Assembly: GCA_008632985.1 (NCBI GenBank) | Contig: QPGO01000066.1 | Span: 389,771 to 437,525, forward strand | From: Psammoneis japonica | Lineage: Eukaryota | Reading direction: 5' to 3' | DNA length: 47,755 nucleotides | Shown here: in pieces, positions 3,176-42,045 of the stretch | Numbering within the stretch: position 1 is the first letter of the stretch | Layout of the letters: the number at the start of each line of letters is the position of its first letter | Notes under the pieces: model-generated | The model's input: the letters and a program-made list of their open reading frames with translations, nothing else | Databases searched by the model: none | Told to the model about the DNA's origin: nothing | Translations under genes and position numbers: made by a program

Positions 3176-3571
3176 GACGCGTTCCAGACGTAGGTGGGAA
3201 TCCGTGTGACATTGGGACCGTAGACTTCTACGTGCGAGCTCCGTAGTAAAATTATACGGTAATTAAAATGTCAATGATCGCCAACAGAAAATGAGGCAAT
3301 TTTGCGAACGCACAAACTCGCCCATGATTGAAGTGCATTGTTTTTTACTTAGACAGTTACATTCTTCAGACATTGAAGAATGTAACTGGCGCATTATTGT
3401 TTCTATAATTTCGTTATATAAAACGTCTGGGGCTTCGCAAAACAGCAATTCTAGACAATTTTTTTTAAATGTCACACGTAGAAATCTACGTGCGAAACAT
3501 ACGACGGATGACAAAAATTGTTTGTGTCACACGTCAGTGCTACGAGCTCCCACCTGGGGCTGGAACACGTC
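3176..3571 (+). mobile_element. MITE type A (396 bp), least-mutated copy, inserted in copia gag
   Basis: TIRs gacgcgttccag / ctggaacacgtc, extending imperfectly to ~24 bp (aggtggga). 4-bp TSD aagc at 3172-3175 and 3572-3575. Removing the insert rejoins gag sequence that is contiguous in copy 2. Rich in TA. Confidence 0.92.
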
Positions 3572-6500
3572 AAGCTCTCATCCCAGAGATGGAAACGCTT
3601 CATGCTCAAGAACGCCATTGATCCTGTCAAAGAACTTTGTTCAGCAAAGAATCAAGCCGATCAATTTTGCACGCTGAATGGCACAGGTCTTTCATGTGAG
3701 CAGTGCTGTGGGCTCCTGCTTTCTGTGGCGGCACAGAGCAACAGCACTTTCACCCCCAAGACAGCCTCACGCTCTGCACCACGCCATCTGTGAACATGAC
3801 CTGGCTCCTGACGACCCTGACAATGACGCACTCTACAACATCGACAGTGATGTTGACGTCATTCAGGCTCATGCTGCTCAGACTCGTGGCAACTCCCTCA
3901 CCAGGGAACAACGGCGTTGCATCCTGCCGGACCACCAGCGCATCTGGGACACCTTGCCTCAGTTCACCAAGGCCATTGCGCTTGGTTTGCACACTGCCCA
4001 TGCCGGCAATTGTCATGACTTGACAGCAGTCAACCTCCACGACCTCCGTCTTGGCAGCAATGGTGACGCGCCAACTTGTTGGCCAATGCTCGTGAGCGTC
4101 TGCCTCTGAACCACCTGATGCTGCAGCTGACCCAGTTGATGCTGACCCCATCCTGGCCCACCTCACCAAGCGCAAGCCTTTGCCACCCAGTTGTCTGCAA
4201 TGTCTTCTCACACCCAAAAGGCCGCCCTCGGCCTGCTCTGGCAAGAAACCTCCCTGATCTTTGTCCTCCCGCCACACCAACACTGACATTGAGATCAATG
4301 GCCACACTTGCCATTGCGTCAACAACCACAACGTTGTCTGCTCTGCCTTGTCTCATGCCTGGACTTGCAAGGGTGCTCTCGTGGATTGTGGTGCAAACAG
4401 TGGTGTTGCCGGTGACAATGTTTGTGTTGTTGCTTGCACTGATTGTCAGGTTGACACACAAGGCATCAACAACCATCAGCTTTTCAACACCCCCATTGTC
4501 GCTGCCGGTGGTGTCATTCACATGCAATGCAGACCTGTGATTGCCATTCTTCACCAGCGTGTCTGCACTGGGAAGGGCAAGACCATCCACTCTTGCAGCC
4601 AAAACAAGTGGTGCAAACATGACACAAATGACAGGTCCATCAAGGTCCCCAATGGTTTGCAGCGCATCACCGCCATTGATGGATGCGTCATTCCTGTTGA
4701 CATCAAAGGCAGCCTTCCGTACATTGCCACATGCCTGCACTCCAATGCCAAATGGGACACCCTGCCTCATGTTGTCCTCACTGGCAATGACACCTGCAAC
4801 CCATCTGTCCTTCACCACCAGTTCACCAATGATGAACAGTGGCACAATGCTGTGTCCAACCTCCAAGACGGCTCAACTGCCAACCCATTTGACAAGTTCC
4901 GAAACTGTCGTCACCGTCATGTTGTCAACAGTGCAATGCTTGCAGACTCTGTCCTGGATGACCACCTCATTCCAACGTCCAAATTCTTCTGCAAATGTCA
5001 TGAGCGTGAGATCAACCCCAACAAGGATTCCGACTGCGAGTCTTTGCGCCCCTGTTTTGCTTCCTCTCCAATGACACTGTTTGCCAAACTTTTGACTGCA
5101 TGACACAGTGCACCCGCATGCTTGCCAGCACACACCTGAAAAAGGCGCACAAGTCACCCAACCTGGCTCTCAATGTCCGCCGATGCAACAAAACTGTTGC
5201 CACCAATGCGGTGCACTCTGACACACCCACCATTGACTCTGGCTGCATCAGTGCACATCTCTTTGTTGGCACAGAACCCCTTGTCACTGACATCTGCAGA
5301 ACCAAGACTGACAAGGAATTTGTCAACACACCTTGAAGACAACATCCACATCTGTGGTGCTCCCTCCAAGCTCATCAGCGACCGTGCTCAGGTTGAAATC
5401 AGCAACAAAGTTCTTGGCATCCTTCGTGCTCTCTTCATCTTCAGCTGGCAAAGCAAGCCCCACCAGCAGCACCAGAACTTTGCTGGGTGCCGCTGCCAGA
5501 CTGTGAAGACCATGGCCAACACCATCATGGATTGCTTTGGGTCTCCCGCTCCCACTTGAGTGCTGTCCGGTTCTGCCCCCAACATCAGCCCGCTCCTTGG
5601 CTTCCAATGGTGGGAACCCATGTGCTGCCACTTGGATGATTCCAACTGGCCTCCCAAATCCCGTGAACTCCGTGGTCAATGTGCTGGCATTGCCGAGCAC
5701 GTTGGTCATCAGATGACATTCAAGATTCTTTCTGACAACACTCAGAAGATTCTTTGCTGTTCAAACGTTTGTTCCGCCTGCAAACCATCCCCTCCAAACC
5801 TCCATCTTGACCCTCCTGACAAAGGATCTGGCAAACCTGTCATCAAATCCCATCACAACTCTGAGGACTCCACACAGATTCACCAGATGACAAGACAATC
5901 AGGATGCCCAAAATGCCGGTCTTCAATGCTGAGGACATCATCAGACGTTCCTCATGAAGCCGCAAGAGGACGGACAACACCACAGAGCCTGCATTGTCAA
6001 AGCCATTGAAGACCATGATTGGGAAATCAGAGACAACCCGGAACTGGTCAAGTTCATTTGCTCTGTCAACAATGACAAATGCAAGGAAGTCCTCCTTGCC
6101 TGCAATGATGTCATGCACCACATCAAGCAAGAAGATGAGGATTCCACCCTCTGGAAGTTCTGACATTTTGTCTCTCACGAAGGACCATTGAGGCCCCATG
6201 ATCCATCTTAGAAAGGCTCAAGCTGCAACATCATGCTTGAGTGGGAGAACGGGGAGATCACGTCTGAGCCCCTTGCCATCATTGCCAAGGATGATTCCGT
6301 CACTGGTGCCATTTGTGCATGTGAGCATGGCTTGCTCAAGACCAAAGGCTGGAAGCATTTCCAGACCACAGCTTGGTGCCAGAAGAAGCCATTCTGCATG
6401 GCCAACCAAGCCAAGTTGCGCTCCTTTTGCACCACACACCACGATGCAAGCACAGTTTTGAAGTGCCCCGGGACTGCAAGCATGCCTTGACCCTTGACAA

Positions 6501-7892
6501 ATGCAATGGCAACTGCAAATGGGGAGGCACAACAGACCTTGAGATGACTCAGCTTGACAAGTGCAAGGTCTTCCACGACTGTGGGCACTGCAAAGACTCC
6601 AGTGCTCCACCAGGACACAAGAAGATCAGGGTGCATCTTGTCCACAAGATCAAACACAATGGACGGCACAATGTCCATTCTGGAGTGGTGTTTGTCCATG
6701 GCCTGCGCATGATGATCTTCCTGGCAGAACTCAATGACCTGGAGACCTGGACAACCAACATTGGGAATGCCCATCTGAAAGCCACCACCAAGGAGAAACT
6801 GTGCATTGTGGCAGGCCCTAAATTTGGCAAGTTGGAAGGACACATCCTTGTCATCCACAAGGCTTTGTGCAGACTTTGCAGCTCCGGTCTCAGGTGGCAT
6901 GAATGCTTTGCCAATTGCTTGCATGCTGAAGGCTTCTTCCCGTGCCGCGCCAAACCTGACATCTGGTTGCGCAGAAATGGCAATCACTGCAAATGCGTGG
7001 CAGTGCATGTGGACAACCCAGCCTTTGCCATGAAGAACTCACAAGCATTTGCGGACACTCTCATGGAGAAGTGCAAGTTCAAACTCAAAGGCACTGGACC
7101 ATTGGCGGAGCTCCACCTTGGTTGCGATTTCACCCATGATCCAGATGGCACCCTGTGTCTTGCTCCCCGCAAGAGCATTGAGTGCATGGTGGACAACTGC
7201 GCACCCCTCTTTGGGGAGAAACCTTGCTCTGATGTGCCCTGAGCTTGACACCTCTGAACTGCTTGAACCAGATGGCATCCACCAGCTCCAATCCTTGATT
7301 GGCTCCCTGCAATGGGCTGCGTCCCTCGGACGCATTGACATCACTGCGGCCGTCATGTCCCTGTCTGGCTTCCACACAGTGCCTCACCAAGGCCGCTCAG
7401 ACCGTGCCAAGTGCATCTGCAGATTCCTCTCCAAGATGCAACATGGTGCCCTCTGAGTGTGCACCAAGGAGCCTGACTGTTCGGACCTTCCCAAGCTTGT
7501 GTGTGGCTGGTCCCAGTCCATGCACGGGGAGGTGGAAGAACTGCTCCCACAAGATGCACCTGAGCCACTTGGCAAGTTCGTCACTGCAACCCAAAGTGCT
7601 GACACAAACTTGTTCCATTGCATGGCATCCCACATTTCCTTAACAAGTTTCTGGCTGATTGGCTCTCCAAGAAACAAGCAACAGTTGAGGCTGCTGCATG
7701 TGGATCTGAGTTTGTTGCCACAAGGACCTGCACTGAGCAGATCATTGATCTGCGCATCACTGTCACCCTGACAATGTGAAGATTTTTTTCTGACTCATTT
7801 GATGATGCAGCCTCTCCCCTTTTGTTGACCAGTTCACTGCCTCTCTCTTGTTGAATCTGATGCCAGAATTTTGTGGTTCCCAAAGTGCACAA

Positions 7893-8235
7893 GATGCACT
7901 CTAGACATGGGTGACATTGGGCACATGGAATTCTGCATTCAAGCTCCACAGCAAAATTGCAAGGCAATGAAAATGTCAATGATCGCCATGATTGAAGTGC
8001 ATCATTTTTTGCTTGGCCAGTTGCATTCTTCAGACATTGAAGAGTGCAACTGGTGCATCATCATTTCTGCAAATTTGTCATGCAAAACGTTTGGGGCTTT
8101 GCAAAACAGCAAGTCTGGACAATTTTTTTGGAATGCCACACGCAACAATGTGCACGTGAAACATGCGATGGATGACAAAAATTGTTTGTGTCACATGTCA
8201 GCACTGCGAGCTCCCACCTGGGGCTGGAATGCATC
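7893..8235 (+). mobile_element. MITE type A, old copy with internal deletions
   Basis: Degenerate TIRs gatgcactctag / ctggaatgcatc; TSD acaa at 7889-7892 and 8236-8239. Body aligns to 3176-3571 with TA->TG/CA changes. Confidence 0.85.
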
Positions 8236-8320
8236 ACAATGGCAAGACCATGTCCATGGTTTGCATGTTGAATTTGTGTCACTCCAAGGGTGCCCCAATC
8301 AGCATGACTGATGAACTTCT

Positions 8321-10130
8321 TTGAACTGTCCAAGAGGAGTTCTTGAGTGGCGGGTTGTCAGCCAACCGCCAAATCCCCTCCTCTTGAACTTTTGTCTCAA
8401 AGCTCAATTGAGTGTTGCCCAGCATTGTCGCTCTGATGTTGAAGTGAGTCCCCTTGAGTCTGTGTCCATTGTCGGCCAACCAAAAAATGACAAACCAACA
8501 CAGCTGTCTCCCGGTGTCCCTGTGTGCAACTTTTCTCTCCAGCTTCAGGACTTGTTTGATGATCCTCTTTTTGCAGACCTCTCCAATCTTGACATTCCTC
8601 CTGAGCCACACTGTTCTCAGGTCCCATCCAATGAACCCATGCCAGACATGAATGGAGACTGGTGACTTTGTGATTGCACAGAAATGAAGGACAGAGAGAC
8701 TTGCAGCAATTGCTTGCATGGATTCTGTGATCCAGCTCTCCCTGCATTCTTTCCTGTTTTTGTCGTGCACTGTGCTGACAAAGCCGGGAAAGGACAGGTT
8801 GCCCCCCACATGATGGGTCCATTTGTTTTCTCTGTGACCATTGTCAAGGCAGGTGCATGGAGGCATTTTGAAGCATGGCGCCCTCTGGGCTTTGTCATGA
8901 AATTCACTGGCCACAAAACTGAGAACGCTGTTTTTGGCACAAATGGAGCCATTTGTTTTCTCTGTGACCATCATCAAGGCAGGTGCATGGGGGCGTTTTA
9001 AAGCATGGTGCCCTCTGGGCTTTGTCCCAAAATTCTCTGGCCACAAAACTGAGAATGCTGTTTTTGGCATGAATGTCAGAAATCATCATTGCACTGCATC
9101 CGTCATTCTTGCATCTGCAGCTGCAGTGCCAGAATTGCTGCCAATGTGCCGCATCTGACTGGGAGACCAGTGCTGTTCCAAGCACATGATTGTTCACAGC
9201 ATCACTTCAATGGGCAACGCCAAAGTCACTGGCCGTGTTTCAGGTTGCAAAAACACTTGTTGCATTGGTCATGCGTGTCTCACATCGTGGGGTGTGCAGC
9301 GACCAACCTTCACATTGTTGCAGGTGTTTTTTTCAGGAAGTGATGAAGTGTCTTACGGTGGCTGCTCTTGGACCACCTCCTGGCTCCACCAACAGTCTGT
9401 GGCATTTGTGAATCAAGTCAACAACTCCAGCTGTGGTGTCAAAGTTGAAAGCAAAATCTTTGTTTGCTGGCATGTGGCGCTGTTGTGCAACACATGGACA
9501 TTTGTGCCACCACACTTCACAAGGTGTTTGGTCAACACATGGCAGACAATGCATTCTCTCCTCTTTGGATGCTTGGAGACAACCATCAGGGAATGTTTGG
9601 TTTTGCCTCACCCAATCCAATGCACATTTTTCAAGGTGCCACAGTCCCCCAGTGGCTTTCTGTGACACTTGACAATTTGCCCGACTCCACGGAAGGACCG
9701 CTTGACGATCTGGCCATTCGTGTGTTTGGATCTCAGTGGTGCAGGCCCACCCAGAGATCAAACTTTCCACTGGTTGTCCTTTTGCACCTTGTCCAGTTTG
9801 ACCTGTGACCAAAAAATGGGCAAGCTTTTTGCACTTGCACTGGCGGGTCAAACCAAGGAGAGGTGCAGCATGCTCCACCTTTGATGTCATCCTGACTTTG
9901 ACAAGACAAAGAAAAAGTGAGCCTTTCAGTTTGATGCCGGTCACCCCAAGTGTGGATCACAAAAGAATGGGTGACAAACTCATGGGACAGTGATGTTGCT
10001 TGCTGTTGCAAAACAGCCAAAACAAAGCAGGCAATGAAGAAGGACAATTGAAAATTGGGTGAGTCTTCAAACAACATGGAAAATGAAAATGAATTCTGCA
10101 TGATGAATGATGCGCCAAAACAAAGCTGCA
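8321..10130 (+). mobile_element. Degenerate Plavaka/CACTA-like transposase fragment
   Basis: Frameshifted ORFs carry motifs such as LQDLFDDPLFADLSNL, DMNGDW, PVFVVHCADKAGKG..MGPFVFSV and SMGNAKVTGRVSG. These resemble diatom Plavaka-type transposases from memory; an HMM search is needed. Confidence 0.5.
8811..9070 (+). repeat. 130-bp tandem duplication (2 copies)
   Basis: ccatttgttttctctgtgaccat...ggccacaaaactgagaa.gctgtttttggca occurs at 8819-8939 and 8949-9069. Confidence 0.9.
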
Positions 10131-12175
10131 ATCAAGGCAATTGAAGAATTGTTGGAAGGGGACTGCAGAAGTGATTCATGTGACAATTGCCCCAAACAAA
10201 ATTTTGGTTTGTTGGCAGGAGTTAAGAATTTTTCCCTGCGCTTGCAAAAAAAAGGCATTTCATCCAAAAACTGAAATGGGTGGCAAAGAAAGAGAGAGAG
10301 AGCTGGCAATTGCAGGAAGAACAGCAAGAGAAAACAACCATGCCTGTGTTGCCAGGGTTGTGCTGTCAATGCCAGAAAACAGGTGAGCAGGGAAACCTTG
10401 CATTGATGGAGAGCATCTTGGACTGTGCATTTTTGCAACACACGGCGCACACTTTGAGATGGACAGTCACACAGAAAAGTGCTCCTCATTGAGAGATTGC
10501 GGGGATTCATTGAAATTTTCACTCACTGGAATTTACACAGAGAACTGAACAAGAGCAGGCCACACTGCTGCGGGTGGATGGCTGGCCAGATGCAGCAAAA
10601 TCACCTGATTTTGGCAAATTGAGAATCCCAACATCCGGGTTGCTTTGGGCGGGTTGGACAGCCACCACCTCCTGGTCACTTGAGGTTCACACATCATCAC
10701 GCTGTGCATCACGTACGAAGCTGCGCATTGTTGTGGCGCATGACGTGGCATTTTGAAGTTGCGTCCCATGCAATGCTCAGAACAACAAAAAAACACCGCA
10801 TCTCCCACCATGGGACTTGATCGTTTGTAGATCAACGGCCGCAACGTCGATCAAGATGAGAGTGCAGTCACACCACTGTAAATTGTTGCTTGTTTTGATG
10901 GTTGCACCGGATTTCTCGGCACTGTTGACCATCATGCCGTGTTCAGACATGCCAACAGGCAGTGTGTTTGCTGACTTTTTTCTGCAGGGCTCTCACGACC
11001 GCTGCGCAAACAAGTCTAAAATCACTGGGTTCATTTCTGCTGTAGATGCAATTGTCAGTGTCTGAGGAATGCACTCGTGTGGATGGCGTCATTTTTGTTT
11101 CTGCCAGTTTCCCATGACAGATGCAGAAAATTGCTTTCTGATTTCCAACGTCGACAATGCACCACGCATGATGCAGAAGAGGAACAATGGGATGTTTTTT
11201 TTTCCAAAGAGAGAAGAGGAGCTAAATTGTGTGGCAAATGCAGTCATTGGATGCTGCAAACAATTGTTGGTGCCTTGTTTGGAACATTTTTTGCTTCCTC
11301 GTCAAAGCGACAGTGGCAATCATGACACCTTGCTCATTTTCGCCCCATGGTGTCAATGCAGCTTGGTTGCGTGATGTGGCACATGGTGTGCTTTGTCACG
11401 GGACAGTGCGTGAAACCAAAAGTGCAATGGACGGGAGCTCCGAACCATCGGCAATCGGATCTATGACCAGCTCGTTGAGCTCGTTCCAAATCCGTGCTCA
11501 AATGGATCAGAGCGGCTGTCCTTCGCTGCGTCTGCACATCGTGCGCACGGAAACTTGTTTTGCCACCAGCGGACACTCTAACTGGCCAACCACCCCTGCT
11601 GTCAAAATTTCAATTTTTGCATCCTTGTGGGATGGCTGGACATGAACAGACATGACTTTGACAGATGGAGAATGCCAAACATTGTGGAAGGGTGGGTGGG
11701 TCAGAGCATCACATGCTGTGAGGAGATTTTGGACCAAGCAACTTTGTTGCTCAGTTTCAGCCACAGGAAAATGACCAGGCACGTGCACCACCAGGGTTGT
11801 CTGCCATCTGCCATTGTGGTGGCATGCAAGTGTGGAGACCGGGCTTGTCAATTCCCAAGAAGCACCAGCATGATGCGTGGTGGATTGACAATGACCAAAC
11901 TGGGTTGGGCGCAGTGAATCTGCAAATGCACGAGAAGGGATGTTCGTTGAACTGGCAGGATTGCAACTCATGGCCTCCATTGGCCAGTGGAGACCTGGTG
12001 TTTTCCAAAGAGGAAAAGCTTGCCAGGCTGACCGTTTGTTGTTCTGGTGTCCACACTGCAATGGAGGGACATTGCAGGGGACTGGATGCTGCGTTGAAAC
12101 ACTTGTTTGAAGAACACAGGGGACGATGGGCCAAGACAAGTGCAAGGAAGATGGGTTGGAGGTCAGAGACCAGAT

Positions 12176-12453
12176 TGACAGGATTTGAACAGGATCCAGG
12201 TGCACACGAAATGTTGCGCGCTGTTTAGTTTGCTGCGCACAGTTTTGTGTGCTCTTCAGCTCCACGCGCATGCGTGCGATGCAGTTTGCTTTTGAGCCAC
12301 TCGGCTCACAAGAGTGATGACAGTGGCCCGATTGTGCCGACTCACATGTCTTTTGGCTCCTGCAACGGTCTCTGAGCGGAGACTCAAATGCCACTCAGAC
12401 AGCAGCAAGGAGTTGTTGTTTGAATCCTTGCCATTTGCCTTCAATTTCCAATG
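12176..12453 (+). repeat. 5' LTR of copia copy 2
   Basis: Colinear, same-length match to 19421-19698. Confidence 0.93.
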
Positions 12454-12468
12454 GATTGACAGTCTCGC
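12454..12468 (+). promoter_or_regulatory. Putative primer-binding site gattgacagtctcgc
   Basis: Directly follows the 5' LTR and is conserved at the same position in copy 1 (1567, gattgacagtct). Confidence 0.6.
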
Positions 12469-14481
12469 TCATTGTCAACCCATTGAGCAACCGCCATCGT
12501 CGTCGTTGATTTACCAACGATGCTTTTTCCAATTCTGTGTGGACCTCCGTGCACATTCTACGTGCACATCGGCAAGTCCACGTGCATTCAATGCCAAGCA
12601 TCAGCAGGAATTTAACGTCGCCGTCAAGTCTCCTTGCCGCTGGACATCTGGATTGATTGCACTGCCTTTTGTCGCTGAAGACACACATTCAATGGTTGCA
12701 TCCAAGTCCATCCTTGATCCTCATCCCTTCACACACCCATTCAATGGCAAACGGTCAAGAACCCTGCATGTTCAAAGTTCTCCGTCGCTGAAGACAAGTC
12801 TGTTGCACCTGATCTGCCCTGGACTGCTGGTGCTCCACAGTTCCACCAGGTCCACGAGGATGACTGTGAGAGCAAGCAGCCATGATTGCAGCCCACGTTG
12901 GGGTGAGGGTGTTTTCCCGCGTTTGTTTGTTCGTCCACAGTGCCCAACGTCTGCGTCAACTGGCCAGCCTGATCGGGAAATCCAACTGACATAAAATGAG
13001 AACAGTTTGGGGGTCTTGTCCACCTCCAGTCAGCTTGCCTGCAGGGGTTTGCAACCCGCCACTCTGCTCGCAAGCAACCCAAAGCGCCGCCAGCTGTGGG
13101 TTCGGACGTGCCGGCACAACTCTGCGGACCAGATGGGAAGTTTAGCACTTGACAACAAACGGGATGGCACAGCTTGGCAACTTCTGATTTTAAGACAGCT
13201 CAAGATTTCAAGTCAAGTCTGTTTCAAGTCAAGCCCATTCCCACTCAAGTTTCAAGTCTGCCTCCGCGTCCTGACAAGAATCGCTTGCCCTGACACCATG
13301 TTTGTCTGCCATGGTTCTTGCTCGTCAGCAACAAACCGATGGTTTCGAGCACGTTGTTGGAACCGTGCTTGCCCAAGGTGCTGGAAGCCCTCTTTGTTTG
13401 GCTTTGACCCATGACGGCACGGACTCGTGCCAAGAACTGTTCACGTTCATGCCTTCCCAAATCGACGTGCTTGAGTGCGACAACGGCACCAATGTGATCC
13501 CATTGCCCCGAGGTCATGAGAACATGTTGGCAGCTCTGGCCAGTCTGCACATTGTCAAAGCACACAAAGGCCTTGATGTTGCCAATGACTCCTCGTTGTT
13601 CACGCATGATGAGTTCCTTGCCTGCCGCCTCAGCCCCGACTGCATGTCTTCTGTGTCCATCGGCAGCTCACCTCTTGCACCTTCGCATGTCACCAACCCG
13701 ACCAAGGCACGCGACCCAGTGCGTGACTTCAAGCAAGGCATCAAGCATGACCCCAATGCTTTCACGGCTCTCAAATCCGACAAGCAGTGGCACACTTGGC
13801 ACACCTCACTTGTGGCACAAGCCCATGCCCAAGACGTCGAGTGCATTCTAGACTCGCCATGCAAACCGACCAGCCCCGAAGACAAACTGCTCTTTGCTGA
13901 ACAGCAAAAGCACATGTTCGCCGTCTTCAAATGCATCCTTCTCACCGACAAGGGCAAAGCTCTCATTCGCAAAAATGTGGGGTCTTCTGACGCCCAGACC
14001 ATCTGCTGCACCTCAACCGAGCATGCGCTTGCCTCCACCCGCGCATCTGTCAAATCCTCCACCTTGCTCACGCACCTCACCACCGCATGCCTTGGTGATG
14101 GTGCTTGGAAAGGTCCAACCCACGGGTTCATCCTTCATTGGCAGGATCAGCTGCGCAAGCACGAGGCACTCATCCCGGCCAGTGACCACTTCTCTGAAGG
14201 ACAGAAGCGCGTCATGCTCGAGAATGCCGCACATCCTGTCGAGGAACTCCGTGCCGTCAAGAACCAAGCTGATCAACATTGCACGCAGAGTGGCAGGAGC
14301 CTCACACACGATCAATGTTGTGGCTTGCTCCTCTCCGCGGTGGCTCAATGCGACAGCATGTTTCAACCCAAGACAACACCTCAAGCTCCCCACTGTGCCA
14401 CATGCGCACATGACGTCTACTCCGAGGAACCATCCAATGATGTGTTGATGACATCGACAGCGACACTGACGTCCTTCAGGC

Positions 14482-30151: not shown

Positions 30152-33100
30152 ATGATGAAAACGACTACGGCATTTAGCGCTTTGGCGCTCATAGCCCTCC
30201 AATCATTCACCTCGGTGCATGGAAATCTTATGGTAAGTGATGTGTGGCACTGCGCCTTGTCAAAACCGTCGTTTTTCCACTTTTCACAGTACAGTTCTCA
30301 TGGGGGACAAGGGGGAGGAGCAGCCCGATCACCCTGTACTTTTCACCGTTCTGCCCTATTGCTCTTGTATGATGGCACCCAAACGCTTTAGTAGCGTTCT
30401 GGTGACTTTGCGCATTGTCAAACTTGTCGTTTTCCCCTGTTTTCCCCAGTTTTACGTGGAAAATCAACGATCCACCCTGCATGATGTGTCGTCGTTCTTT
30501 GTTGTCGTGCGTGTATATCGCCACTGCATTACCCCATTGCATGATACTATTTCTGTATCTTTTAACTTATGAATGGGGGATGCATCTGGTATTCTCAGCG
30601 TCCATACAAGAGGCGTTTCCGGCGTCGAACGCCATGGTCGTTTGGAACGTTCTCAATCGAATCAGTCAAAGAAATTTCCGTTGACACGATGGCTTCTCAT
30701 CCATCACCGTGACGTCAGCACAGAAAATTCTACGATTACTGTGTCTTTGTCTGTGTGGTATCGTGGTGCCCGTTCGGATGACTTGCCGAAGTCGTCGACC
30801 GACCGCCGACCGCCACGATGATGACGGATGACGGCTATGACGTTGTTGCGTTGCATTGTTTGATCGACTCGAGGTACTATCACTCATCATCATCATGTAT
30901 TACTATATCAACTCTCATCATGTATTGTCCATACTCTCATCCTATGTAGACTCGCTTCAGTAGTCTTTGGCGTGATGATCATATTGAAGAGCATCATTTG
31001 CGTGCGGACGAAGCGCATCGTCATCAACCCATCAACGTCAGTGACGGAGTCGTCGTCAAGAAGAAGACGGGAGGAGAGGAGCACGCGCAGTTGCGTGGCG
31101 TGGAGGATTGGTTGGTAAGTCAACTGCACAGTAGTGGGTTCTGTTTGTTATTGTGGAAAGAAACTCACTTTTTTCAAATAAAATACTGGTTACTTCAGCA
31201 GGGCGATTTTGTCCGTCGCGCTGGGGAGGCGGCTGAAAGCGAAAGCCGCGTACTCGGTGGTAGCACATTCTATCCGGTTGGCGACTCGTGCACGGACGAT
31301 AACAATTTCGTTTTTACCTATGTGGGATACTATGATGATGGTACCAATTATCGTTTTAAATATAAAATCTGTGGAGGAGGGGATAAGGCGCTCAGTCACT
31401 GGAACATTGAGATTGGTCAGGCCGATAAATGTTTCATTGACTCTGATGTCGACTGTCATTTCGGTGATTTCGATGGAAATTCGGATGAGAATACTTGCGG
31501 TCTTACAGTTCCTGGCAACTCTGCAAAGTGTGACACGGAGGGCTGGCCCGGCAACGCTCCGGACCAGTGTGATAAAATGACACTGACGTTTCCGAAATGC
31601 GAAATCTCATCGCCAACAGGAGGAACAGCGGTTGGTTACTCAAAGCCAGGTGGTGGGCAAGGTACCTGTAATGCAGCCATCGCTTGCTCAGTAGACGGAC
31701 CTGTCTGCGGCGACTGTGGTGGTGGACCGACGTGTCCTGATAGTTGTCCCGTTTGTCAGATCTGTACTAACCCTGACGATGGTTGTGTGAATATTGATAA
31801 CGCTGCGGGCACCGCTTGTGACCTTGATGGCGATGGAATCAATGATGGTTGCTGCGCTGACGTTAACGGCGACACGCTATTAACTTGCGAGACGAACCAA
31901 GTGCCCGACCTCGGCAATTCGGGCTCTTGTACAGCTCCGTGTCCCGATACTTGTGACCCTTGCCAATATTGCAATGATGAAAATACCGACTACCTGTGTG
32001 TCCCCGATCCGGACCAGTATGGTGAGGCTTGCACGGATGGTGGAGAAACTGGATGTTGCCCTGGAACGGGTGCCATCGGCGAAGGCACTTGCGACACGAC
32101 TCAAGTGCCCGACCCCAACAACGAGGGTGTTTGTACGGATCCGTGTCCTGCTACTTGTGGCCCTTGCGAATATTGCAATGAATACACCGGCTACATGTGT
32201 GTCCCCGATCCGAGCCTGTATGGTGAAGCTTGTACGGATGGTGGAGAAACTGGATGTTGCTCTGTCGGTGCAGGTACTTGCGACACAACTCAAGTGCCCG
32301 ACCTCGGCAATCCGGGATCTTGCACAGCTCCGTGTCCTGATACTTGTGACCCTTGCCAATATTGCGATGATGAAAATACCGACTACATGTGTGTCCCCAA
32401 TCCGATGCATTATGGTGAAGCTTGTATGGATTCAGAAGGAAATTATGGATGTTGCCCTGGAATGGATGCCCCCGGTGAAGGTACTTGCGACACAACTCAG
32501 ATTCCCAACCACCCCCCGAACGATCAGTGCCGAATTCCTGGCTGTCCTCCTTGCGGTGAATGCGAGACATGCAATGATGTCACCTATCTGTGTGAATACG
32601 ATCCTTCACTGGAACCCGTCATCGACAATGATGCAATGGACATGACTGTGCAGTGCGACGGAATGGGTAACACTGCGGATCTTCACGATTGGCTAAACAG
32701 TTACGGCGGCGCGACGGCGACTAACCCGCCTCACGAATGGAGCAACAACTTCGATAAACTGTCTTATGCTTGTGGTGGGACTGGATCGGCTACGGTTACG
32801 TTCACGGCGACCAACGACTGTGGTGAGGCATCCACTACCGCGACGTTTACCATTCAAGACACTAAAGCTCCGACCATCACGAAACCCGCAATGGATAAGA
32901 CTGTGGAGTGTGACGGAGAGGGTAACACGGAGGCTCTTCACGCATGGCTAGCCAACAACGGCGGCGCCGTGGCGGATGACGCTTGCGGTGATGTTACTTG
33001 GACAAATAACTTCTCCCATGTTGTGCTATCTGATGATTGCCCTGAGATTGGATCGGCTACGGTCGACTTTACCGCGACTGATGAATGTGGCAACTCAGCC

Positions 33101-36100
33101 ACGACGACTGCGACGTTTACCATTGAAGACAAAACACCTCCGAAGATCACGAAACATGCAATGGACATGACTGTAGAGTGTGACGGAAAGGGTAACACGG
33201 AGGAGCTTCAAGCATGGCTAGAGAACAAGGGTGGCGCCGTGGCGAATGACGCTTGTGGTGGTGTTAAATGGTCCCACAAGATCATCGATGAATCTGACGA
33301 TTGCGGTGAGACTGGATCGTATACGGTCACATTCACCGCGACTGATGATTGTGGCAACTCGGCAACCACTACCGCGACGTTTACCATTGAAGACACCACA
33401 CCTCCGGAAATCACGAAACATGCAATGGACATGACTGTAGAGTGTGACGGAAAGGGTAACACGGAGGAGCTTCAAGCATGGCTAGAGAACAAGGGTGGCG
33501 CCATGGCGAATGACGCTTGTGGTGGTGTTAAATGGTCCCACAAGATCATCGATGAATCTGACGATTGCGGTGAGACTGGATCGTATACGGTCACATTCAC
33601 CGCGACTGATGATTGTGGCAACACGGCAACCACTACCGCGACGTTTACCATTGAAGACACCACACCTCCGAAAATCACGAAACATGCAATGGACATGACT
33701 GTAGAGTGTGACGGAAAGGGTAACACGGAGGAGCTTCAAGCATGGCTAGAGAACAAGGGTGGCGCCATGGCGAATGACGCTTGTGGTGGTGTTACTTGGT
33801 CCAATGACTACGATTCGAGTCAGTCTGGTGCTGGTGTGTGTGGTGCAATTACCGTTGTGTTCACGGCTACCGATGAGTGCGGCATGACGTCATCGACATC
33901 TGCGACCTTTACTATCAAAGATAGTTCTCCTCTTACAATCAAGAAAGATGCAGAGGATAAGACTGTGGAGTGTGACGGAAAGGGTAACACGGCGGCTCTT
34001 AACGCATGGCTAGCCGACAACGGCGGCGCTCATGCAAGTGATGCTTGCGGCAGTGTTGATTGGACCAACAACTTCTCCCATGTAGGGCTTTCTGATGATT
34101 GCGGTGAGACTGGATCGGCTAAGGTCAAGTTTACCGCGACTGATAAATGTGGCAACTCGGCATCCACTACCGCGACGTTTACCATTCAAGACACCACACC
34201 TCCGAAAATCACGATGGATGCAGAGGATGTGACCGAGGAGTGTGGAAAGGGTAACGCGGCGGCTCTTAGCGCATGGCTTGCCAACAACGGTGGCGCCGAG
34301 GCGGATGACATTTGTGGTGGTGTTAAATGGTCCCACAAGATCATCGATGAATCTGACGATTGCGGTGAGACTGGATCGTATACGGTCACATTCACTGCTA
34401 CCGACTCGTGTGACAAAAAGTCAACAACGACTGCGACGTTTACCATTCAAGACACTACACCTCCGATCATCACGACACATGCAAAGGATAAGACTGTGGA
34501 GTGTGACGGGTCGGGCAACCAGGCGGAGCTTACCGCTTGGCTGAACAGCAACGGTGGTGCAGTTGCGACCGATGCTTGCGGTGATGTTACTTGGAAAAAT
34601 AACTTCTCCCATGTAGGGCTATCTGATCTTTGCGGTGCGACTGGATCGGCTACGGTCGACTTTACCGCGACTGATGAATGTGGCAACTCAGCCATGACGA
34701 CTGCGACGTTTATCATTGAAGATACTACACCTCCGAAAATCGAGCCAGGTGCAATGGACATGACTGTGGAGTGTGACGGAGAGGGTAACACGGCGGCTCT
34801 TAACGCATGGCTAGCCGACAACGGCGGCGCCAAGGCGACCGATGCTTGCGGCAGTGTTTCTTGGTCCCATGAGTTCTCTGGTCTATCTGATGGTTGCGGT
34901 GAGACTGGATCGGCTAATGTCAAGTTTACCGCGACTGATGAATGTGGCAACTCGGCATCCACTACCGCGACGTTTACCATTGACGACACTGAACCTCCGG
35001 AAATCACGAAACATGCAATGGACATGACTGTAGAGTGTGACGGAAAGGGTAATACGGAGGAGCTTCAAGCATGGCTAGAGAACAAGGGTGGCGCCATGGC
35101 GGATGACGCTTGTGGTGGTGTTAAATGGTCCCACAAGATCATCGATGAATCTGACGATTGCGGTGAGACTGGATCGTATACGGTCACATTCACCGCGACT
35201 GATGATTGTGGCAACTCGGCAACCACTACCGCGACGTTTACCATTGAAGACACTGAACCTCCGGATATCACGACACAAGCAATGGACATGACTGTAGAGT
35301 GTGACGGAAAGGGTAACACGAAGGAGCTTCAAGTTTGGCTAGACAACAACGGCGGCGCTCATGCAACCGATGTTTGCGGCAGTGTTTCTTGGACCAACAA
35401 CTACTCCGTACTATCTGATGGTTGCGGTGCGACGGGATCGGCTACGGTCACATTCACTGCTACCGACTCGTGTGGCAAAGAGTCAACGACGACTGCGACG
35501 TTTACCATTAAAGACACTACACCTCCGAGCATCACGACACATGCAAAGGATAAGACTGTGGAGTGTGACGGGTCGGGCAACCAGGCGGAGCTTACCGCTT
35601 GGCTGAACAGCAACGGTGGTGCCGTTGCGACCGATGCTTGCGGTGGTGTCATGTGGTCCAACAACTTCTCCGAACTATCTGATGATTGCGGTGAGACTGG
35701 ATCGGCTACGGTCACGTTCACTGCCACCGACTCGTGTGGCGTAGCTTCAACGACGACTGCGACGTTTACCATCGAAGATACGAAGGAGCCTGCTGTTAAA
35801 GGTGTCCCTGACGACGAGTCGGTAGTTTGCGAAGGTATCCCTGTAGCTTCGTCTAATGTAATCGCGTCCGACGCTTGTGACGATTCTCCCGTGGTCTCGT
35901 GCGAAGACGTTTATGCGGACGCGGTCTACTTCCCTGGAGTGATCATTACTCGCACGTACACTGCCACGGATGATTGTGGTAATTCTCACGACGCTGACGT
36001 CCAGACGATTACAGTTGTGGACACGTGCTCGGCGGACACGGCAGATAGCTTTTCTGGTCCGTGGGTCAAAGTTTCTGTCGAGATTACGAACGTCTTGGTT

Positions 36101-36589
36101 GACGGCGTAGCCACTTCAGTCTGCATGGAAGTGAGAGTTGTTGATCAACGCACTGCCGACATTCGCGGAGTCTTTTTCGAGACCGCCAAGTGGTCTGATT
36201 TGGACGACACCAGTGTCACCGCGACTCTTTTGGAAGGCACTGTAAACGGTAAACCTAACCCAGGCTACCCTGTCCGTGGACAAGTCGCGTACGGAGCAAA
36301 AATCGATCGTGTGAGCAGGGATGTCACCATGAAGGGAGGCGGCAGGAATGCTCACACGTACAATGTTGGAGTAGAGACTGGTTCACCGGGAAAATCGAAG
36401 GACGACATCCAGGCTGTTTTGGTGTGTGTCGACGGTCTGACAACGGATGACATTCACGGTGAGGTCGGCGTCCGCATGACCAGTGTCACTGACAGGAAAG
36501 GAGGCCGCGAAGATAGCAGCAAATCCTTTGGGCCCGTTGATTGTTGCGTCACCGGAGTCGAACCAACGGTGAGGGCCTGTCCTGTATAA
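30152..36589 (+). CDS. Large secreted Cys-rich / HYR-like repeat protein (~1,880 aa), putative adhesin or extracellular-matrix protein; exons 30152-30232, 30950-31114, 31199-36589
   Basis: Signal-peptide-like start MMKTTTAFSALALIALQSFTSVHG. GTAAGT donors at 30233 and 31115; acceptors AG at 30948-30949 and 31197-31198, the second with a CTCAC branch site ~31164. All junctions are phase 0 and in frame with the 1863-aa ORF. Architecture: pro-region (LRA/LRG, RVL), Cys-rich domain, 3-4 ~65-aa Cys repeats, 12 ~88-aa repeats plus one divergent unit, C-terminal globular domain, TAA stop. TA and CG content is normal. Confidence 0.88.
31890..32600 (+). repeat. Intragenic Cys-rich tandem repeats (~65 aa; CPDTCDPCQYCNDENTDYxCVPDPxxYGEACxDxxxxGCC)
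   Basis: Three near-complete units plus partial flanking units are visible in the translation. Confidence 0.85.
32620..36025 (+). repeat. Intragenic array of ~264-bp HYR-like repeats (12 full + 1 divergent)
   Basis: Unit DTTPPxITxxAxDxTVECDGxGNxxxLxAWLxNxGGAxAxDxCGxVxW...SDxCGxTGSxTVTFTATDxCGNxxTTTATFTI. Units starting near 33130, 33394 and 34985 are almost identical at DNA level. Confidence 0.95.
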
Positions 36590-36916
36590 GATGGAACTGA
36601 TGATGAGTGAGGATTGGATTTGATGGACGGAGCGGCGGCTCGAGTGGAGGATACACATTTGTGCATGTTTGAGAGAAAGATGGTTCGGCGGAACATCAGA
36701 AGAAAAGAGACCAGATGGCAGACGCGTCTTTGTTGTTGCATATCACAGGAAAGCCTAAGCCTTGGTCCGTGAGTCGAACACAAAAATTATTGACACATGG
36801 AAAAAACAAAAAACTCATGGATGCAAGAGAAAAACCAACTGTACTTGGATAGATAGAGTTAATATCTAACAGGAGCTTGGTGCGGTTGAAACATGGTGTG
36901 TAAGTAGAAACATTGT

Positions 36917-39700
36917 GACAGTTGGGAAAATTCTACTCGGAGCACGATTTTCTGCGACCTCGCGACCTCGCACTTTCGGACCTCGCACTTTTCTCTGCGC
37001 ACGAGCGCGCGAGCATTCGCCTTGGTGGCGCCCGCCGTTGTTCCATTGTTGCTTTGACTGCTGTCGTTCCATTGTTGGTCACTCGTTCCATCACATGAAT
37101 GTTGTGGAACGACAGGGCCCTGCTGACACATCACACTTGCGTTGTGTTTGTTTGTCACAGCCTCCAAGAACCGGCCTTGCCAAGCTGGGTGAGCATTTTC
37201 TTCGTGGAAACCACCAAGTTTCGCACAGGCTCGATGGTCACCCCACCCAGTTCACACATGGCAAAATCTTGCAGCATGTGGTGCTGCGCCTGTGGTGGCC
37301 AATGAGGGTGGCAACGCCGGCAGTGAATGTGATTGGGGTCATCACTTTGGCCTCAAGATCGACAAGAGTGGGTTTTTTTCAAATGGGCGTTTCGTCGGTG
37401 CTCATGGTGATGATGGAGGTTGTGTGGCAGGGGAGCAGAATTGCGGAAATGTGGGCACCCCCATCCCCTGTTGACAAGCAAAGTGAAATGTGTGTCACGA
37501 GTTGCGATGGAACCTGCTTGAACTTCAGCGTCAGTGGACTCGCTGTCACTTGCGGCTTTGCAGCGAAGATGAAGGGTGGAAACAGCGGCAATTTCCATGA
37601 GTGCGGTCCTGGTTGCACTTCCAACACACTTCTGCTTGAATCTCTTCCAAACAGTCAGGGTGCCACACTGGGGCTCAGCCACCTGATGTTCTGCTGGGAG
37701 GATTGTGATGGTGGCTGCGACTGCGCTCCTCTCCCAAACTTTGTGGCGCCAGCTGACGACACTGTTGAATGCTGCAAAACAACGGACCCTGCAGAAGAAG
37801 GAATCCACAATGAAAATGATGGTTGTGATGTGGGAGGAACAATCACGTGAACATGCTTCAACACCGTGGTGGATGGAGATCTCTGCTCTGGCAAAACCAC
37901 CAAGCAATTCTAGAATCTAGCCTTTTCTGACAAAGAGACTTGTGGTGGAGTTCATCCAATGATGCAGACTGTTGAGGTCAATCCGGACAAAATGCCGCCA
38001 ACAATCTCTTGTCTGCCCCAGGTTGAAGTCCCCAAAGAGTGTTGTCTCTGCAAAATGGGTGCTGAATGTTTGGCAGATGCGGCAGCAGAAGATGCTTGCA
38101 ACCCACCCGTGGCCATTGCCAGCGACTTTGCAGCGTTCACCTGTGCTGACACTGGCACTCCAATCTCTGACACTGGCATGATGCACATTGTAACTTGAAC
38201 GGCAGTGGACTGTTGTGGCAATGAGGCCACATGCAACCGGTCAGTCATGATTGTCAACTCTGCACCAACGCTTGAAGATCCTCCTGCTGTCCCGACTCTG
38301 AAGTGCAAAGATCCTGTTCCTGCTGCAGGTCCACTGAAGGCGATGGACACATGCGATGGTGATGTGCCAGTCTGTCCAGACAAGAAAACAGACAGTGCGG
38401 GATGTGACTGCATGCACAGTTGCACATGGACCCATGTGGACACACATGCGGCAAAGCTGCAGAGAAAAAAAGCAGGTTGTCAAAGTTTGCAAGGGCACGG
38501 ACGACCCATGCTTCACTTCTTGTCCATCCCAAGTCATTCAGAAAGAGCATTGAAAGTGAAGAAGGGTTGACGACTGCTTTGGAGGAGATTCAACAGCAGA
38601 AGACATTTGCGACTCAAATGTCAACATTGCCAGTGACTTCACGCCGTTCAACTGCTGTGCTGACGTTGGTCACACATGTGAAGTCATTGCCAACTCTGAG
38701 CCAACACTTCCAGATCCTCCTGTTGACATGGATCTTGGGTGCAACGCAGATCTTCCACTGGCAGATCCACTGACTCCGACAGACACATGCAACAAAGACA
38801 TTCAGCCAGTCATGCCAACTGAAAAGGAAGAAAATGCAGGCTGTGACTGCAAGTGTGTGCTTGCACATGGGCCTGTGTGGATGAATCCTTGGAAACAGTG
38901 AAAAAAAAACAGGTTGTCAAAGTTTGCATTTATGATGAGGATCCAATCTCCCTGCTGAGCCTGGGGACCTGGAGGTTTGCAAAGGTGATCGTCCATCTGT
39001 GCCATTGCTGATGGCAAGCAACAACTTTTGATGAGCCAATCTCTGGCATCTCAATGGAAAACATCAAGCTGGCTGGTTGCCGCGACATGGTCATGCACAC
39101 CTGGACCTTTGCGGATCAATGCAGCAACTCAGATTCACTCCATCAGATCATCTGGTGGGCACTGCAGTCATCCCTGCTTTGACAAGGGTTGTGATGATGG
39201 AGAGTGCACTTTTTTTCTGATGGTGGGTCCAAAATCCCAAGCACGTGCTGAGGTGAACATCACAAAGCTGAAGAAGATGACAGCTCCTGTCTGGTGGACT
39301 TCAAAGGGCATGCCAGCAAGGCCCAGAATGACCCTGAGAAGGGTGAGCACTGGAGAGGCAGTGCACGAAGATCTTTCTTCTGTGGTCATTGAGGAGAGGC
39401 ACATCCACATCAGCACCAAAGTTCCCACTGCTGGCAAAGGGAAGCCTGCCTCTGCTCCAGGAAGGCACAAACAGGAAGGTTGTGAGGGGGATGGAGTTCT
39501 TGCTGGGACATGTTGCACCATTGTCCACTGCGTTGTCCATTTCCTTTGCAACATGAAGTTGACGGAGTTGTTGCATCTTGTGCACTCTTTCAATTGATCA
39601 TGAGTGAGGTGGTTTCTGTTTTGTCATTGAAGGAATGACAAGAGTGTGGTTGTGGTGCAGTGTTTGGTGGGTGGATGGCAGGTTTGGAAACCAATGCGCG
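36917..39700 (+). repeat. Segmental duplication, copy 1 (paralogous to 45063-47625)
   Basis: Colinear shared blocks: cagttgggaaaatt, ctgctgg..ga.tgtgatggtggctgcga, gacagtgcgggatgtgac, cacatccacatcagcaccaaag..cccactgctggcaaagggaagcctgc. Confidence 0.88.
37383..39560 (+). pseudogene. Pseudogene of a secreted HYR-like repeat protein
   Basis: Frameshifted pieces PNFVAPADDTVECC, DKMPPTISC..AEDACNPPV, AVDCCGNEATC, APTLEDPP..LKCKDPVP..MDTCDGDV and TWTF(A/V)DQCSN show the 4-Cys HYR-like pattern. TA-depleted. Confidence 0.65.
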
Positions 39701-39705: not shown

Positions 39706-40087
39706 TTGTGCCCCATGCAAAAATGGGGTCCAAGTGCTTGGTCACAAAGAGGTTGACAATTCGTGTGTTGCGCAAACCACGAGACTGTTTTGCGCAGAGT
39801 GTGTGCACGTGCGACAGCAAGACATGCCGTGTCTTCAGTCCCTGCGCGGAACCAATCACACTCGGCACTGCGCACATCCTACGCAGTCCCTTCGTGCAAG
39901 GTGAGTCACGCACGCGATGGCCAGTCGTGCCGGTCTCAGTCGTGTGGAACTCCCGCAGCCCTTCGTGGGTCTCATGCTGAGAGTCGCATTTCCTGATGCG
40001 CGCTTCTGTGGGATCAGCATCGCTGCGGACAGCCTGCAGACACAGGAAAGTGGCATCAACGGCAGCTGCGGCAGGGATGCCTGCTGC
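39706..40087. repeat. ~380-bp repeat, second copy at ~43580-43962
   Basis: Near-identical translations (KRL.IRVLRK.RDCFAQS..SKTCRVFSPC.EPI.LGTA); function unknown. Confidence 0.85.
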
Positions 40088-40129
40088 ACTCACCCCTGTG
40101 ACAAGGTCGTGCGAGTGACAGAAGGGTCC

Positions 40130-40560
40130 CACAGCTGGAAAAGGACATTTTTTGTTGTGTCCAAAAAACCAGCATGCCTTCTCGTGCACGAAGGATGACA
40201 TTTTCATTGACTTGAACAACTGCAGCTGGCCCTGAACAACAGTTGTCGGTGCCGCCATTTGTCCGTTGTTCGTGCTCAATTCTCGCGCTTGTCTGTCAAG
40301 TGGAACATTTTCTGATTTCTGTCTGAGACATGCCTCCACTTGTTGCAAAAGGCAACAGACAATCTTGTGTCACGCCCGAAGACTAACTGCATCGGAGTTG
40401 CCTTGGCAGTGGTGTGCACAGTTGCACAGCAGAAAGTTTCAGTCCAAGGGTCATCTTTGCCTGACTCCATGTCTTGCACTTGGAGCACTGTGCTGAGAAC
40501 GTGCATGTGCCGGTGCGGCAGCATCAAGTTTCCAATCGTCTGATGTGCGCGTTCCATGAT
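40130..40560 (-). mobile_element. Ty3/gypsy integrase C-terminal fragment
   Basis: ERAHQTIGNLM...DDPW...ATVHTTAKATPMQLVFGRD...W..V..RNQKM...KREN matches the end of the gypsy integrase core. Confidence 0.8.
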
Positions 40561-41649
40561 GGAGTTCGACCTGGGTGAAAAAAAAAAAGGAAAAAAGGCA
40601 GTGCATCGACATGTGTGCAGAGTTGATCAGGCTCCACTTTCTGTCATGGCAACACCCCTTCTGTCTTTGACAGGCAACAGACAAAGCAAAAAATTTTTGC
40701 TCGTGTCACATTCTTTCACCTTCACGGAAAGAACGCATCAAATTTGCATTTGAATGGCGGGCCTTTCGTCACAAAGCTCTTTTTACGCCAGCTCGGGTTG
40801 TTTTTTGAAGTTTGCATGCCTTTTTGGGCATTTTCATGCCTTTTTCCAGGCATTTTTATAACTTTTGCAATTTTGTAGCCGAAGTGTCATGTCCTCACAT
40901 TCAGCGTTTAAAAACGGCATTCTTTCTTTCCGTTTGTTGAGTTCGTCAAGTGGGCGCACCGGAGTTTTCGGCCCGCTCACTTTCTGCGTAGCCTGGCACA
41001 ACCCAAATCTGTGTAGATTCAGCACATTTTGCCCTGCAGAACAGTTTTTGGGAGTGTTTTCTGGCTCGCGGCTCAAAATGACACACAAAACAACACGGAC
41101 AATGGCGTTTCACCGATTTGAAAAATGCGATCGTCTCTGAGGTTGGAAAGATGCGAGATGAGCTTGAGAATGTCCAGGTTCACATGGGTGGATCATGGTG
41201 CAATTTTGACCTGAAGATTGGTGTTGACACCGCCGCTTTTGTTGCATCAACACGCAACTCATGCATCACCATTCATGCTTTGCCTTTTGTTGAGTGCTCA
41301 CACGTTCACATTCTTTTCACTTGCGTGTGTCTTGTCTTTCCTCATTGTTGTTTTGTTCTGCAGGGTCTCTCTTGCCGTGAGCCATCCTGAGAGAGAAATG
41401 CTTGCTTTGCAATTTTGCCGCACATTTGACCTGCATCCAGAAGGTGATGCGGAGTTTTGTTCGACAGAGAAACGCACCATGGCAATTGTGAAGGGTTGGA
41501 TTGTTTCTTTGTTCTACAAGGCAGTTTACAAGCTAGAAACATGTGACTTGTTTGCCTGCATTGTCAGCCAGTGCAACAAATTTAGAGGTGACAGGTGATG
41601 CACCATGCACAAACAACGAACCAAGCCTCAAAAGCACAGCAGGCCAGCT

Positions 41650-42045
41650 GACGCTTTCCAGCCCCAGGTGGGAGCTCGCAGCACTGACGTGTGACACAAA
41701 AAATTTTTGTCATCCGTCGTATGTTTCGTGCGCACATTTCTGCGTGTGACATTTCAAAAAAATTGTCCAGACTCGCTGTTTTGCGAAGCCCCAGACGTTT
41801 TACATGACAAATTTGTAGAAACAACAATGCGCCAGTTACATTCTTCAATGTCTGAAGAATGCACCCAGCCAAGCAACAAATGATGTTCTTCAATCATGGA
41901 CGAGTTTGTGCATTCGCAAAATTGCCTCATTTTCTGTTGGCAAACATTGACATTTTAATTGCCTGATGATTTTAACACGGAGCTCGCACGTAGAATGCTG
42001 CGGGCCCAATGTCACACGGATTCCCACCTGCGTCTGGAACGCATC
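41650..42045 (-). mobile_element. MITE type A (396 bp), intermediate mutation load
   Basis: Ends gacgctttccagcccc / ctggaacgcatc; TSD agct at 41646-41649 and 42046-42049. Same length as 3176-3571. Confidence 0.92.

Follow-up and report, generated by a model that had tools for sequence, protein, structure and literature searches.

How does a dinucleotide disappear almost completely from the transposons of a genome, and at what moment in the life of an element does this occur? The question was raised by a window of 47,755 nucleotides from Psammoneis japonica (QPGO01000066.1, positions 389,771-437,525; all coordinates below are window positions), in which the observed/expected ratio (o/e) of the dinucleotide TA is 0.15 over the whole stretch and about 0.02 in most 1-kb bins, and in which CA and TG show a window-wide o/e of 1.6-1.7. 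About 80% of the window is poor in TA, and TA-normal sequence occurs in two places only, namely one copy of a short repeat that resembles a miniature inverted-repeat transposable element (MITE) and a block at 29581-36934. The initial annotation had read the copies of this MITE as a time series of TA loss, in which TA is ancestral and the process is progressive, acts after insertion and also affects non-coding elements with no RNA intermediate. Our analysis indicates that the copies probably record a hypermutation that operates at the DNA level and is aimed at transposons, converting TpA to TpG or CpA after insertion and sparing host genes and non-coding flanks. The MITE family is caught at successive stages, with a fresh copy (A), intermediate ones (F, D and a 567-bp sub-family) and end-stage ones (B and E).

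The copies were located by BLAST of the first copy against the window and were then aligned with MAFFT. Seven copies or fragments of a 396-bp element were found. Copy A (3176-3571, plus strand) is full length and unmutated, with 25 TA (o/e 0.75) and 25 CG (o/e 1.44). Copy B (7893-8235, plus strand) bears an internal deletion and is fully stripped, its only TA being private and new, and holds 6 CG. Copy F (41650-42045, minus strand) is a full-length intermediate. Copy D (28422-28757, plus strand), also intermediate, abuts at its 5' end fragment G (28341-28428, plus strand), which is the 3' part of a copy, and copy E (28772-28934, plus strand), partial and fully stripped, lies 15 bases from D. 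Copy C (27232-27446 with a fragment at 27469-27536, plus strand) is partial and old. The five sequence strings on which the initial annotation was built begin exactly at 3241, 28487, 7946, 3345 and 8009. The 567-bp sub-family shares the terminal inverted repeat (TIR) termini and the 4-bp target-site duplication (TSD) of the 396-bp element and has a different interior; it is represented by one copy at 14482-15048 (plus strand, 8 TA left) and a second at 27588-28153 (minus strand, 6 TA left), which differ by 22 TG/CA and 11 TA/x events and still have 20 CG in common.

The TIRs are imperfect, about 27 bp long and read GACGYGTTCCAG... at both ends, the 3' end having been corrected by one base. Copies A, B, F and both 567-bp copies begin with GAYG.GTTCCAG and finish in its reverse complement, and perfect 4-bp TSDs flank five of five complete elements: AAGC for A (3172-3175 and 3572-3575), ACAA on both sides of B, AGCT for F, and AGGC and AAAT for the 567-bp copies at 14482 and 27588 respectively. 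With its TIRs, a TSD of fixed length, a short (396 bp) non-coding sequence and many copies, the element has the features of a MITE and is an abundant, non-coding, cut-and-paste TIR element. In one public sequencing run, 2279 contig pieces match the 1.45-kb stretch around copy A, and the summed word depth, which is not a copy number, is 40,000-285,000 over the element versus 60-7,900 in the flanks. At 3176, at least 20 contigs change to unrelated flanking sequence, which confirms the left end of the element. Two conserved blocks of the MITE scanned against metagenomes returned 0 matches each.

Three of the elements are nested in retrotransposons. Copy A lies within a TA-stripped Ty1/copia element (RVT_2) at 1960-7764 (plus strand, with a stretch resembling a long terminal repeat (LTR) at about 1365-1618), referred to as copia 1, as tblastn homology to copia polyproteins ends at 3141 and restarts at 3581. 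The left 1000 bases beside copy A contain 0 TA and the right 1000 contain 1, against 25 in the 396 bases of the copy itself, in agreement with the earlier observation of a TA-rich copy inside a stripped copia. Run contigs joining 3175 to 3591/3592 were considered as an empty allele of copy A and rejected, since their source is paralogous copias of 80% likeness. Where the run majority differs from the copia flanks, TA is restored at only 2 of 31 listed places, which indicates that this copia has been stripped in its other genomic copies as well. The 567-bp copy at 14482-15048 lies in copia 2 (12173-19696, plus strand; LTRs at 12173-12451 and 19418-19696, differing by 29 events), and copy F in an LTR retrotransposon at 39709-43963 (plus strand; LTRs at 39709-40088 and 43584-43963, TG..CA ends, TSD GTTG), whose empty site is seen in a paralogue of its host repeat near 47639. 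In 3 of 3 cases the nested insertion keeps more TA than its host. Excluding copy F, the interior of the 39709-43963 element has 24 TA in about 3.1 kb, 7 of them knotted at 40784-41014, and is therefore richer in TA than its LTRs; either younger insertions lie inside it or its duplicated ends were hit harder.

The direction of the change was established from the family itself and from outgroup proteins. At 21 of the 25 TA sites of copy A, either another copy also reads TA or one copy reads TG and another CA. Repeat-induced point mutation (RIP) changes C to T at CpA and creates TA; since TG and CA are two steps apart and each is one step from TA, a RIP-type change of CA or TG to TA cannot yield such a split. 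Comparison with ten full-length copia polyproteins from other sources covered 66 conserved-Tyr positions in copia 1 and copia 2, of which 2 are still Tyr (TAY), 40 read Cys (TGY) and 15 His (CAY). Conserved Phe, Trp, His, Cys and Ile columns of the reverse transcriptase (RT) domain are almost all retained. TA is thus the ancestral state, as had been proposed, with an exception at 3452-3453, where all 40 other contigs of the family in the public run read TG and the TA of copy A is probably a private G-to-A change.

The change is strongly specific. At the 25 TA of copy A, differences were found at 18/25 sites in F, 17/20 in D and 25/25 in B, whereas dinucleotides overlapping neither TA nor CG differ at 0/16 to 9/39 across copies, confirming that TA sites diverge faster than others. 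The products of TA loss are TG or CA in 16/16 cases in F, 14/14 in D, 22/22 in B, 10/13 in C and 8/9 in E, which corresponds to nearly exclusive A>G and T>C transitions, and the signature occurs on both strands within one element. The LTR pairs showed the same specificity. Over 382 aligned bases, the LTRs of the 39709-43963 element differ by 16 TG/CA, 1 TA/CA, 15 CG-derived changes, 2 other transitions and 0 transversions, that is, 17 TA-derived changes versus 2 other transitions, with the CG-derived changes forming a second class (C>T). One TA is left in the 760 bases of this young pair, and 18 CG are still common to both LTRs. In the copia 2 pair we counted 10 TG/CA, 11 CG-derived, 2 TA/CA and 6 other events. 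As LTRs are identical at integration and these now differ almost solely at TA- and CG-derived sites, the change occurs after insertion, in accordance with the initial annotation.

Each copy also acquires its changes on its own once it has inserted. Copia 1 and copia 2 have the same product at 13 of 22 homologous Tyr positions, approximately the expectation for independent events given the bias towards Cys, and uniform-product sites across the MITE copies number 8 against 5.5 expected. A common history of B and E, considered on the basis of their agreement in product at 8/8 sites, was rejected, as 4 of the 8 sites are predicted by context and the remainder is within chance. The occurrence of the signature in a family with TIRs and, in five of five complete elements, perfect 4-bp TSDs shows that the process acts on non-coding DNA elements and needs no RNA intermediate.

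The speed of the loss was evaluated on the young LTR pair, in which at most 1 of about 66 TA site-copies survives, whereas the background amounts to 2 events in 2 x 382 bases. Simple arithmetic on these values returned a TA loss about 1600-fold above background (rough range 400 to 13000), a rate so far above background that TA loss is a hypermutation and not a slow clock. In methylated repeats, CpG decays by deamination of 5-methylcytosine. This decay affects the same elements and also yields TG/CA, acting on the C of CG, and it served here as a slower ordinal clock: TA loss is at least 10 times faster than CpG loss in the 39709-43963 LTRs, with 0-1 TA left against the 18 shared CG. TA loss is thus faster than CpG decay and roughly three orders of magnitude faster than ordinary substitution.

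Losses per copy were counted against the inferred family ancestor. Copy A has lost 1/22 TA (5%) and 5/29 CG (17%) at a background divergence of 3.1%; the corresponding values are 16/22 (73%), 8/29 (28%) and 4.8% for F, 14/17 (82%), 6/28 (21%) and 6.1% for D, 22/22 (100%), 19/25 (76%) and 7.2% for B, 13/15, 16/22 and 23.5% for C, and 9/9, 11/15 and 19.7% for E. Although only 15 bases apart, D and E stand at different stages, so that the stage is a property of the element and not of its neighbourhood. Among 93 bins of 500 bp, 0 combine a TA o/e of at least 0.1 with a CG o/e below 0.3, and 12 of the 13 TA-intermediate bins have a CG o/e of at least 0.6, as two ordered decays with TA first would give. 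The proposed time series therefore held as an ordering, which is supported by the intermediates, by the three nestings and by the loss of TA before CG, but not as a calibrated clock, because TA is already gone at about 0.5% background divergence and its loss saturates far below 1%. Likewise, the order of the copies is consistent when TA loss is set against background divergence, as the initial annotation had suggested doing, but this axis is not a valid age, since the background differences of the MITEs are largely transversions that probably predate insertion. The private differences of copy A from the family majority that involve neither TA nor CG (3217, 3225, 3353, 3409 and 3449) are transversions in 5 of 5 cases, which is odd for ordinary decay.

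We then considered the sequence context of the change. In the MITE alignment, xTAC (x not G) became TG 20 times and CA once, while GTAy (y not C) became TG 5 times and CA 18 times (Fisher 5e-7); with each site counted once, the rule was followed at 6/7 and 5/7 sites respectively, the rest being ties, with 0/14 in the opposite direction. Tyr codons of the copias gave 22 Cys and 3 His in the context xTAC (binomial P 1.6e-4), 8 and 6 in xTAT, 2 and 3 in GTAT, and 8 and 3 in GTAC. The changed base is thus preferentially the A of 5'-TAC-3', resulting in TGC. At the present saturation the fraction of TA lost is independent of context (44/53 versus 31/35). Among the TA surviving in stripped DNA, TTAA, CTAA and CTAG are enriched and ATAC and ATAT depleted, but CTAC is not depleted, and the context of the survivors therefore supports the TAC bias only partially. 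On the sense strand of the copias at 1960-7764 and 12889-19365, lost Tyr reads Cys 40 times and His 15 times, and when one member of an old copia pair retains a TA, the other has CA far more often than TG (15 to 3 in the context belonging to neither class, all pairs). This strand asymmetry could reflect a strand bias linked to transcription, or new TA arising by C-to-T.

Sparing of the host sequence is visible in the second TA-normal region. This island (29581-36934, plus strand, taken from the first to the last TA of a dense run) is also CG-normal and holds an open reading frame (ORF) of 1879 aa at 30950-36589. The stretch 29450-36589 has a TA o/e of 0.57-0.62 and a CG o/e of 1.1, with values of 0.57 and 1.13 in the non-coding 1.5 kb that precede the ORF. 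On its right side the island extends 40 bases into a repeat beginning at 36894, from where the TA o/e is 0.06, and no further TA follows until 37911. With a normal island beside stripped transposons, unstripped non-coding flanks and a boundary at a repeat edge, it is transposon sequence that is attacked, and not non-coding DNA as such.

These features suggest a mechanism in which the adenine of TpA would be deaminated to hypoxanthine, which is read as G. The deaminase may be TadA/ADAT-like: the natural substrate of these enzymes is U33-A34(-C35) in the anticodon loop of tRNAs, which would explain why TpA is the target and why TAC is favoured. Such an enzyme would be directed to silenced, methylated transposon DNA, and repeated rounds of its action would carry the copies through partial states.

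The closest known system is that of Bigelowiella natans, for which a recent preprint (Mettrop et al., bioRxiv 10.64898/2026.01.13.699255) describes a hypermutation of the A>G/T>C type restricted to TpA, with a rate about 1000 times the baseline, measured in mutation-accumulation lines and targeting integrated giant-virus and virophage DNA, and proposes an ADAT2-like deaminase. Both systems produce almost only A>G/T>C changes, only at TpA, leaving TpG or CpA on either strand, and both show a local rate of the order of 1000-fold, with foreign or mobile DNA hit and host genes spared. In Bigelowiella the mutation was observed directly and two viral insertions still have TA (Rho 0.45), whereas here it is deduced from fixed differences. 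Moreover, the present case differs from that account in that retrotransposons and a MITE family are hit, that the loss is near completion (TA o/e about 0.02) and that CpG is lost alongside. The main text of the preprint makes no mention of flanking context or of diatoms, so that the TAC bias and the present host would be additions to what it reports, and our literature searches for TA-erasing mutation of transposons gave no description besides this preprint. The new elements here are transposons, including a DNA transposon family, as targets, the near-complete erasure, the accompanying CpG loss and the TAC bias.

RIP, known from Neurospora and other ascomycetes (PMC2621366, PMC3318451), is similar in that heritable, dinucleotide-specific transitions at the DNA level inactivate transposons after insertion, and it likewise leaves a skewed index of TpA versus CpA+TpG. 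However, the C>T changes of RIP raise TpA, while A>G at TpA destroys it. With regard to a RIP-type trigger by duplication above a length threshold, copy A belongs to a very abundant family and yet is unmutated, and the LTRs of the 39709-43963 element are more stripped than its interior. TadA edits within UACG, and the change of UAC to UIC recodes Tyr to Cys (PMC11472039). The preference of TadA and ADAT2-3, as described in PMC11472039 and PMC6506237, for an A preceded by U/T with a UAC(G) core, and the resulting Tyr-to-Cys change, resemble the TAC>TGC bias found here. Natural TadA/ADAT enzymes act on RNA loops, whereas in the present case chromosomal DNA is changed; activity on chromosomal DNA is shown only for evolved editors and, according to work cited in 10.64898/2026.01.13.699255, for the ADAT2 of amphioxus and trypanosomes. 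On this basis we tentatively propose a heritable "inverse RIP", possibly exerted by a transposon-directed DNA adenine deaminase derived from TadA/ADAT, which would have kept the U33-A34-C35 preference of that family, would erase TpA from every mobile element very soon after insertion and perhaps also drive the CpG loss. As the same signature occurs in a chlorarachniophyte, such a system would be old or widespread among eukaryotic algae and not peculiar to one species.

Several other explanations were weighed. The reverse polarity, in which the TA-rich copy would have been mutated by RIP-type C-to-T changes at CpA/TpG, draws on the fact that RIP makes TA-rich copies beside CA/TG-rich ones and on site 3452-3453; it is refuted by the sites split between TG and CA and by the conserved Tyr codons turned to Cys or His in the TA-poor copias, and the TA-poor state is also the degraded one, the TA-rich element having intact TIRs and TSD. 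We consider it virtually excluded. In animals, retroelements are hypermutated A-to-G by RNA editing, and an ADAR-type editing of transposon transcripts fixed through reverse transcription was therefore examined. It is refuted for the elements studied, and overall hardly tenable, as the signature is found in TIR/TSD transposons, which have no RNA stage, and on both strands within one element, and as editing could not make the two LTRs of a single insertion differ, as both pairs do. A sequencing or assembly artefact, such as a modified base miscalled at TpA in heterochromatin, appears highly improbable. Public-run contigs built from exact 31-letter words agree with the stripped flank over 155 bases with 0 differences, the product at a given site, TG or CA, is fixed but varies from copy to copy, and the stripped copias carry matching amino-acid replacements next to a gene with normal TA and Tyr; on the other side, the only run covering the locus may be the source of the assembly, and contigs cannot reveal disagreement between strands. 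A genome-wide neutral bias against TA, with purifying selection preserving TA in genes and transposons not being targeted, would agree with the depletion of most of the window and with the presence of a long ORF in the only large TA-normal block. This is very unlikely, since the non-coding 1.5 kb upstream of that ORF is unstripped, no more than 40 bases separate the end of the island from a repeat boundary, copy A has stayed intact although the 2 kb around it hold one TA, and the adjoining copies D and E are at different stages.

The chemistry and the tempo of the process are less constrained. A modified thymine at TpA (of hydroxymethyl-uracil type, or glucosylated) that mispairs with G would give T-to-C at G-T-A, and the window is silent on which base is attacked, as the signature is strand-symmetric and TAC>TGC equals GTA>GCA. 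We regard this as unlikely, because the combination of TA with a preference for a following C coincides with the U-A-C(G) specificity of TadA-type deaminases, and no T-modifying enzyme with a G-T-A preference is known to us, although no search aimed at one was made. It is quite possible, instead, that the hypermutation is episodic and RIP-like, being triggered by recognition of the element, for example in rare sexual cycles or at silencing, so that each copy had zero, one or several bursts. This would fit the completion of TA loss at such a low background divergence, the untouched state of copy A, the contrast between LTRs and interior of the 39709-43963 element, the clustering of same-strand outcomes along repeat pairs (53 runs where shuffles gave 64.9, P = 0.013, an effect carried by the copia 2 LTRs, with 7 followed by 3), and the appearance of the Bigelowiella hypermutation in only 11/15 lines (10.64898/2026.01.13.699255). 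Conversely, partial states show scattered survivors and not tracts (6/22 TA in F, 3/17 in D, and those left in the 567-bp copies), and the ordering relative to CG loss and nesting is consistent. Partially efficient bursts would look alike, and continuous and episodic models are not separated by these data. Some further points weigh against the main reading. The time series includes 4-6 usable copies, and copy A differs privately from the family majority of the run at about 9 places yet has lost at most 1-2 TA, which fits a steady process only if these differences were inherited from its source copy. The run-based comparison per site covers the 40 listed of 284 variable places, so that genome-wide TA frequencies are unreadable from it, and the run may be the same sample as the assembly, hence not an independent proof against an artefact. 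CpG loss is also very fast in the young LTR pair (15 events), and TA and CG may not be separate clocks. The TAC rule was not reproduced in 29 sites with TA kept in one member of an old repeat pair (xTAC, TG 1 and CA 3; GTAy, 3 and 3), a small set of ambiguous polarity. Finally, the deaminase is a candidate proposed from the signature alone, and T-to-C at GTA is the same signature on the other strand.

If a transposon-directed hypermutation of TpA is at work here, it would add to RIP another kind of genome defence by mutation, with the opposite chemistry, which hits DNA transposons and retrotransposons alike and would be strong enough to deplete most of a genome of nearly all its TA. The MITE family offers the states before, during and after the change at single sites, and the target motif TAC points to a specific enzyme family. 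The loss of TA removes TAA and TAG stops and Tyr codons and produces long false ORFs, distorts the dating of repeats by LTR divergence and lets repeats escape similarity searches. A natural deaminase acting on A in double-stranded chromosomal DNA would also be of interest to base-editing research.

Other features of the window were recorded. In the copia 2 LTR pair (12173-12451 versus 19418-19696) the first seven TG/CA discordances share one orientation and the next three the opposite one (P about 0.018), an order that hints at strand-coordinated hits over patches of about 100 bp; within single MITE copies no strand runs were seen by eye in the alignment. The region 27232-28934 contains at least five copies or fragments of TIR elements inserted beside or into each other (C, a 567-bp copy, G, D and E), with the 3' TIR of G continuing straight into the truncated 5' TIR of D, and looks like an insertion hot spot.

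The protein encoded by the ORF at 30950-36589 (plus strand) has an N-terminal part rich in Cys and roughly twelve 88-aa HYR/Ig-like repeats in tandem, which appear as a 264-bp period in self-BLAST; its TA and CG are normal and Tyr is plentiful. Pfam matches comprise HYR_4C and several bacterial Ig-like families, and the protein-atlas look-alikes of its C-terminus, all scoring <0.9, are bacterial HYR/Ig-like clusters. On the minus strand, a long apparent ORF spans an assembly gap of 265 N at 360-624. As TAA and TAG have disappeared from the stripped DNA, long frames without a stop are frequent across it.

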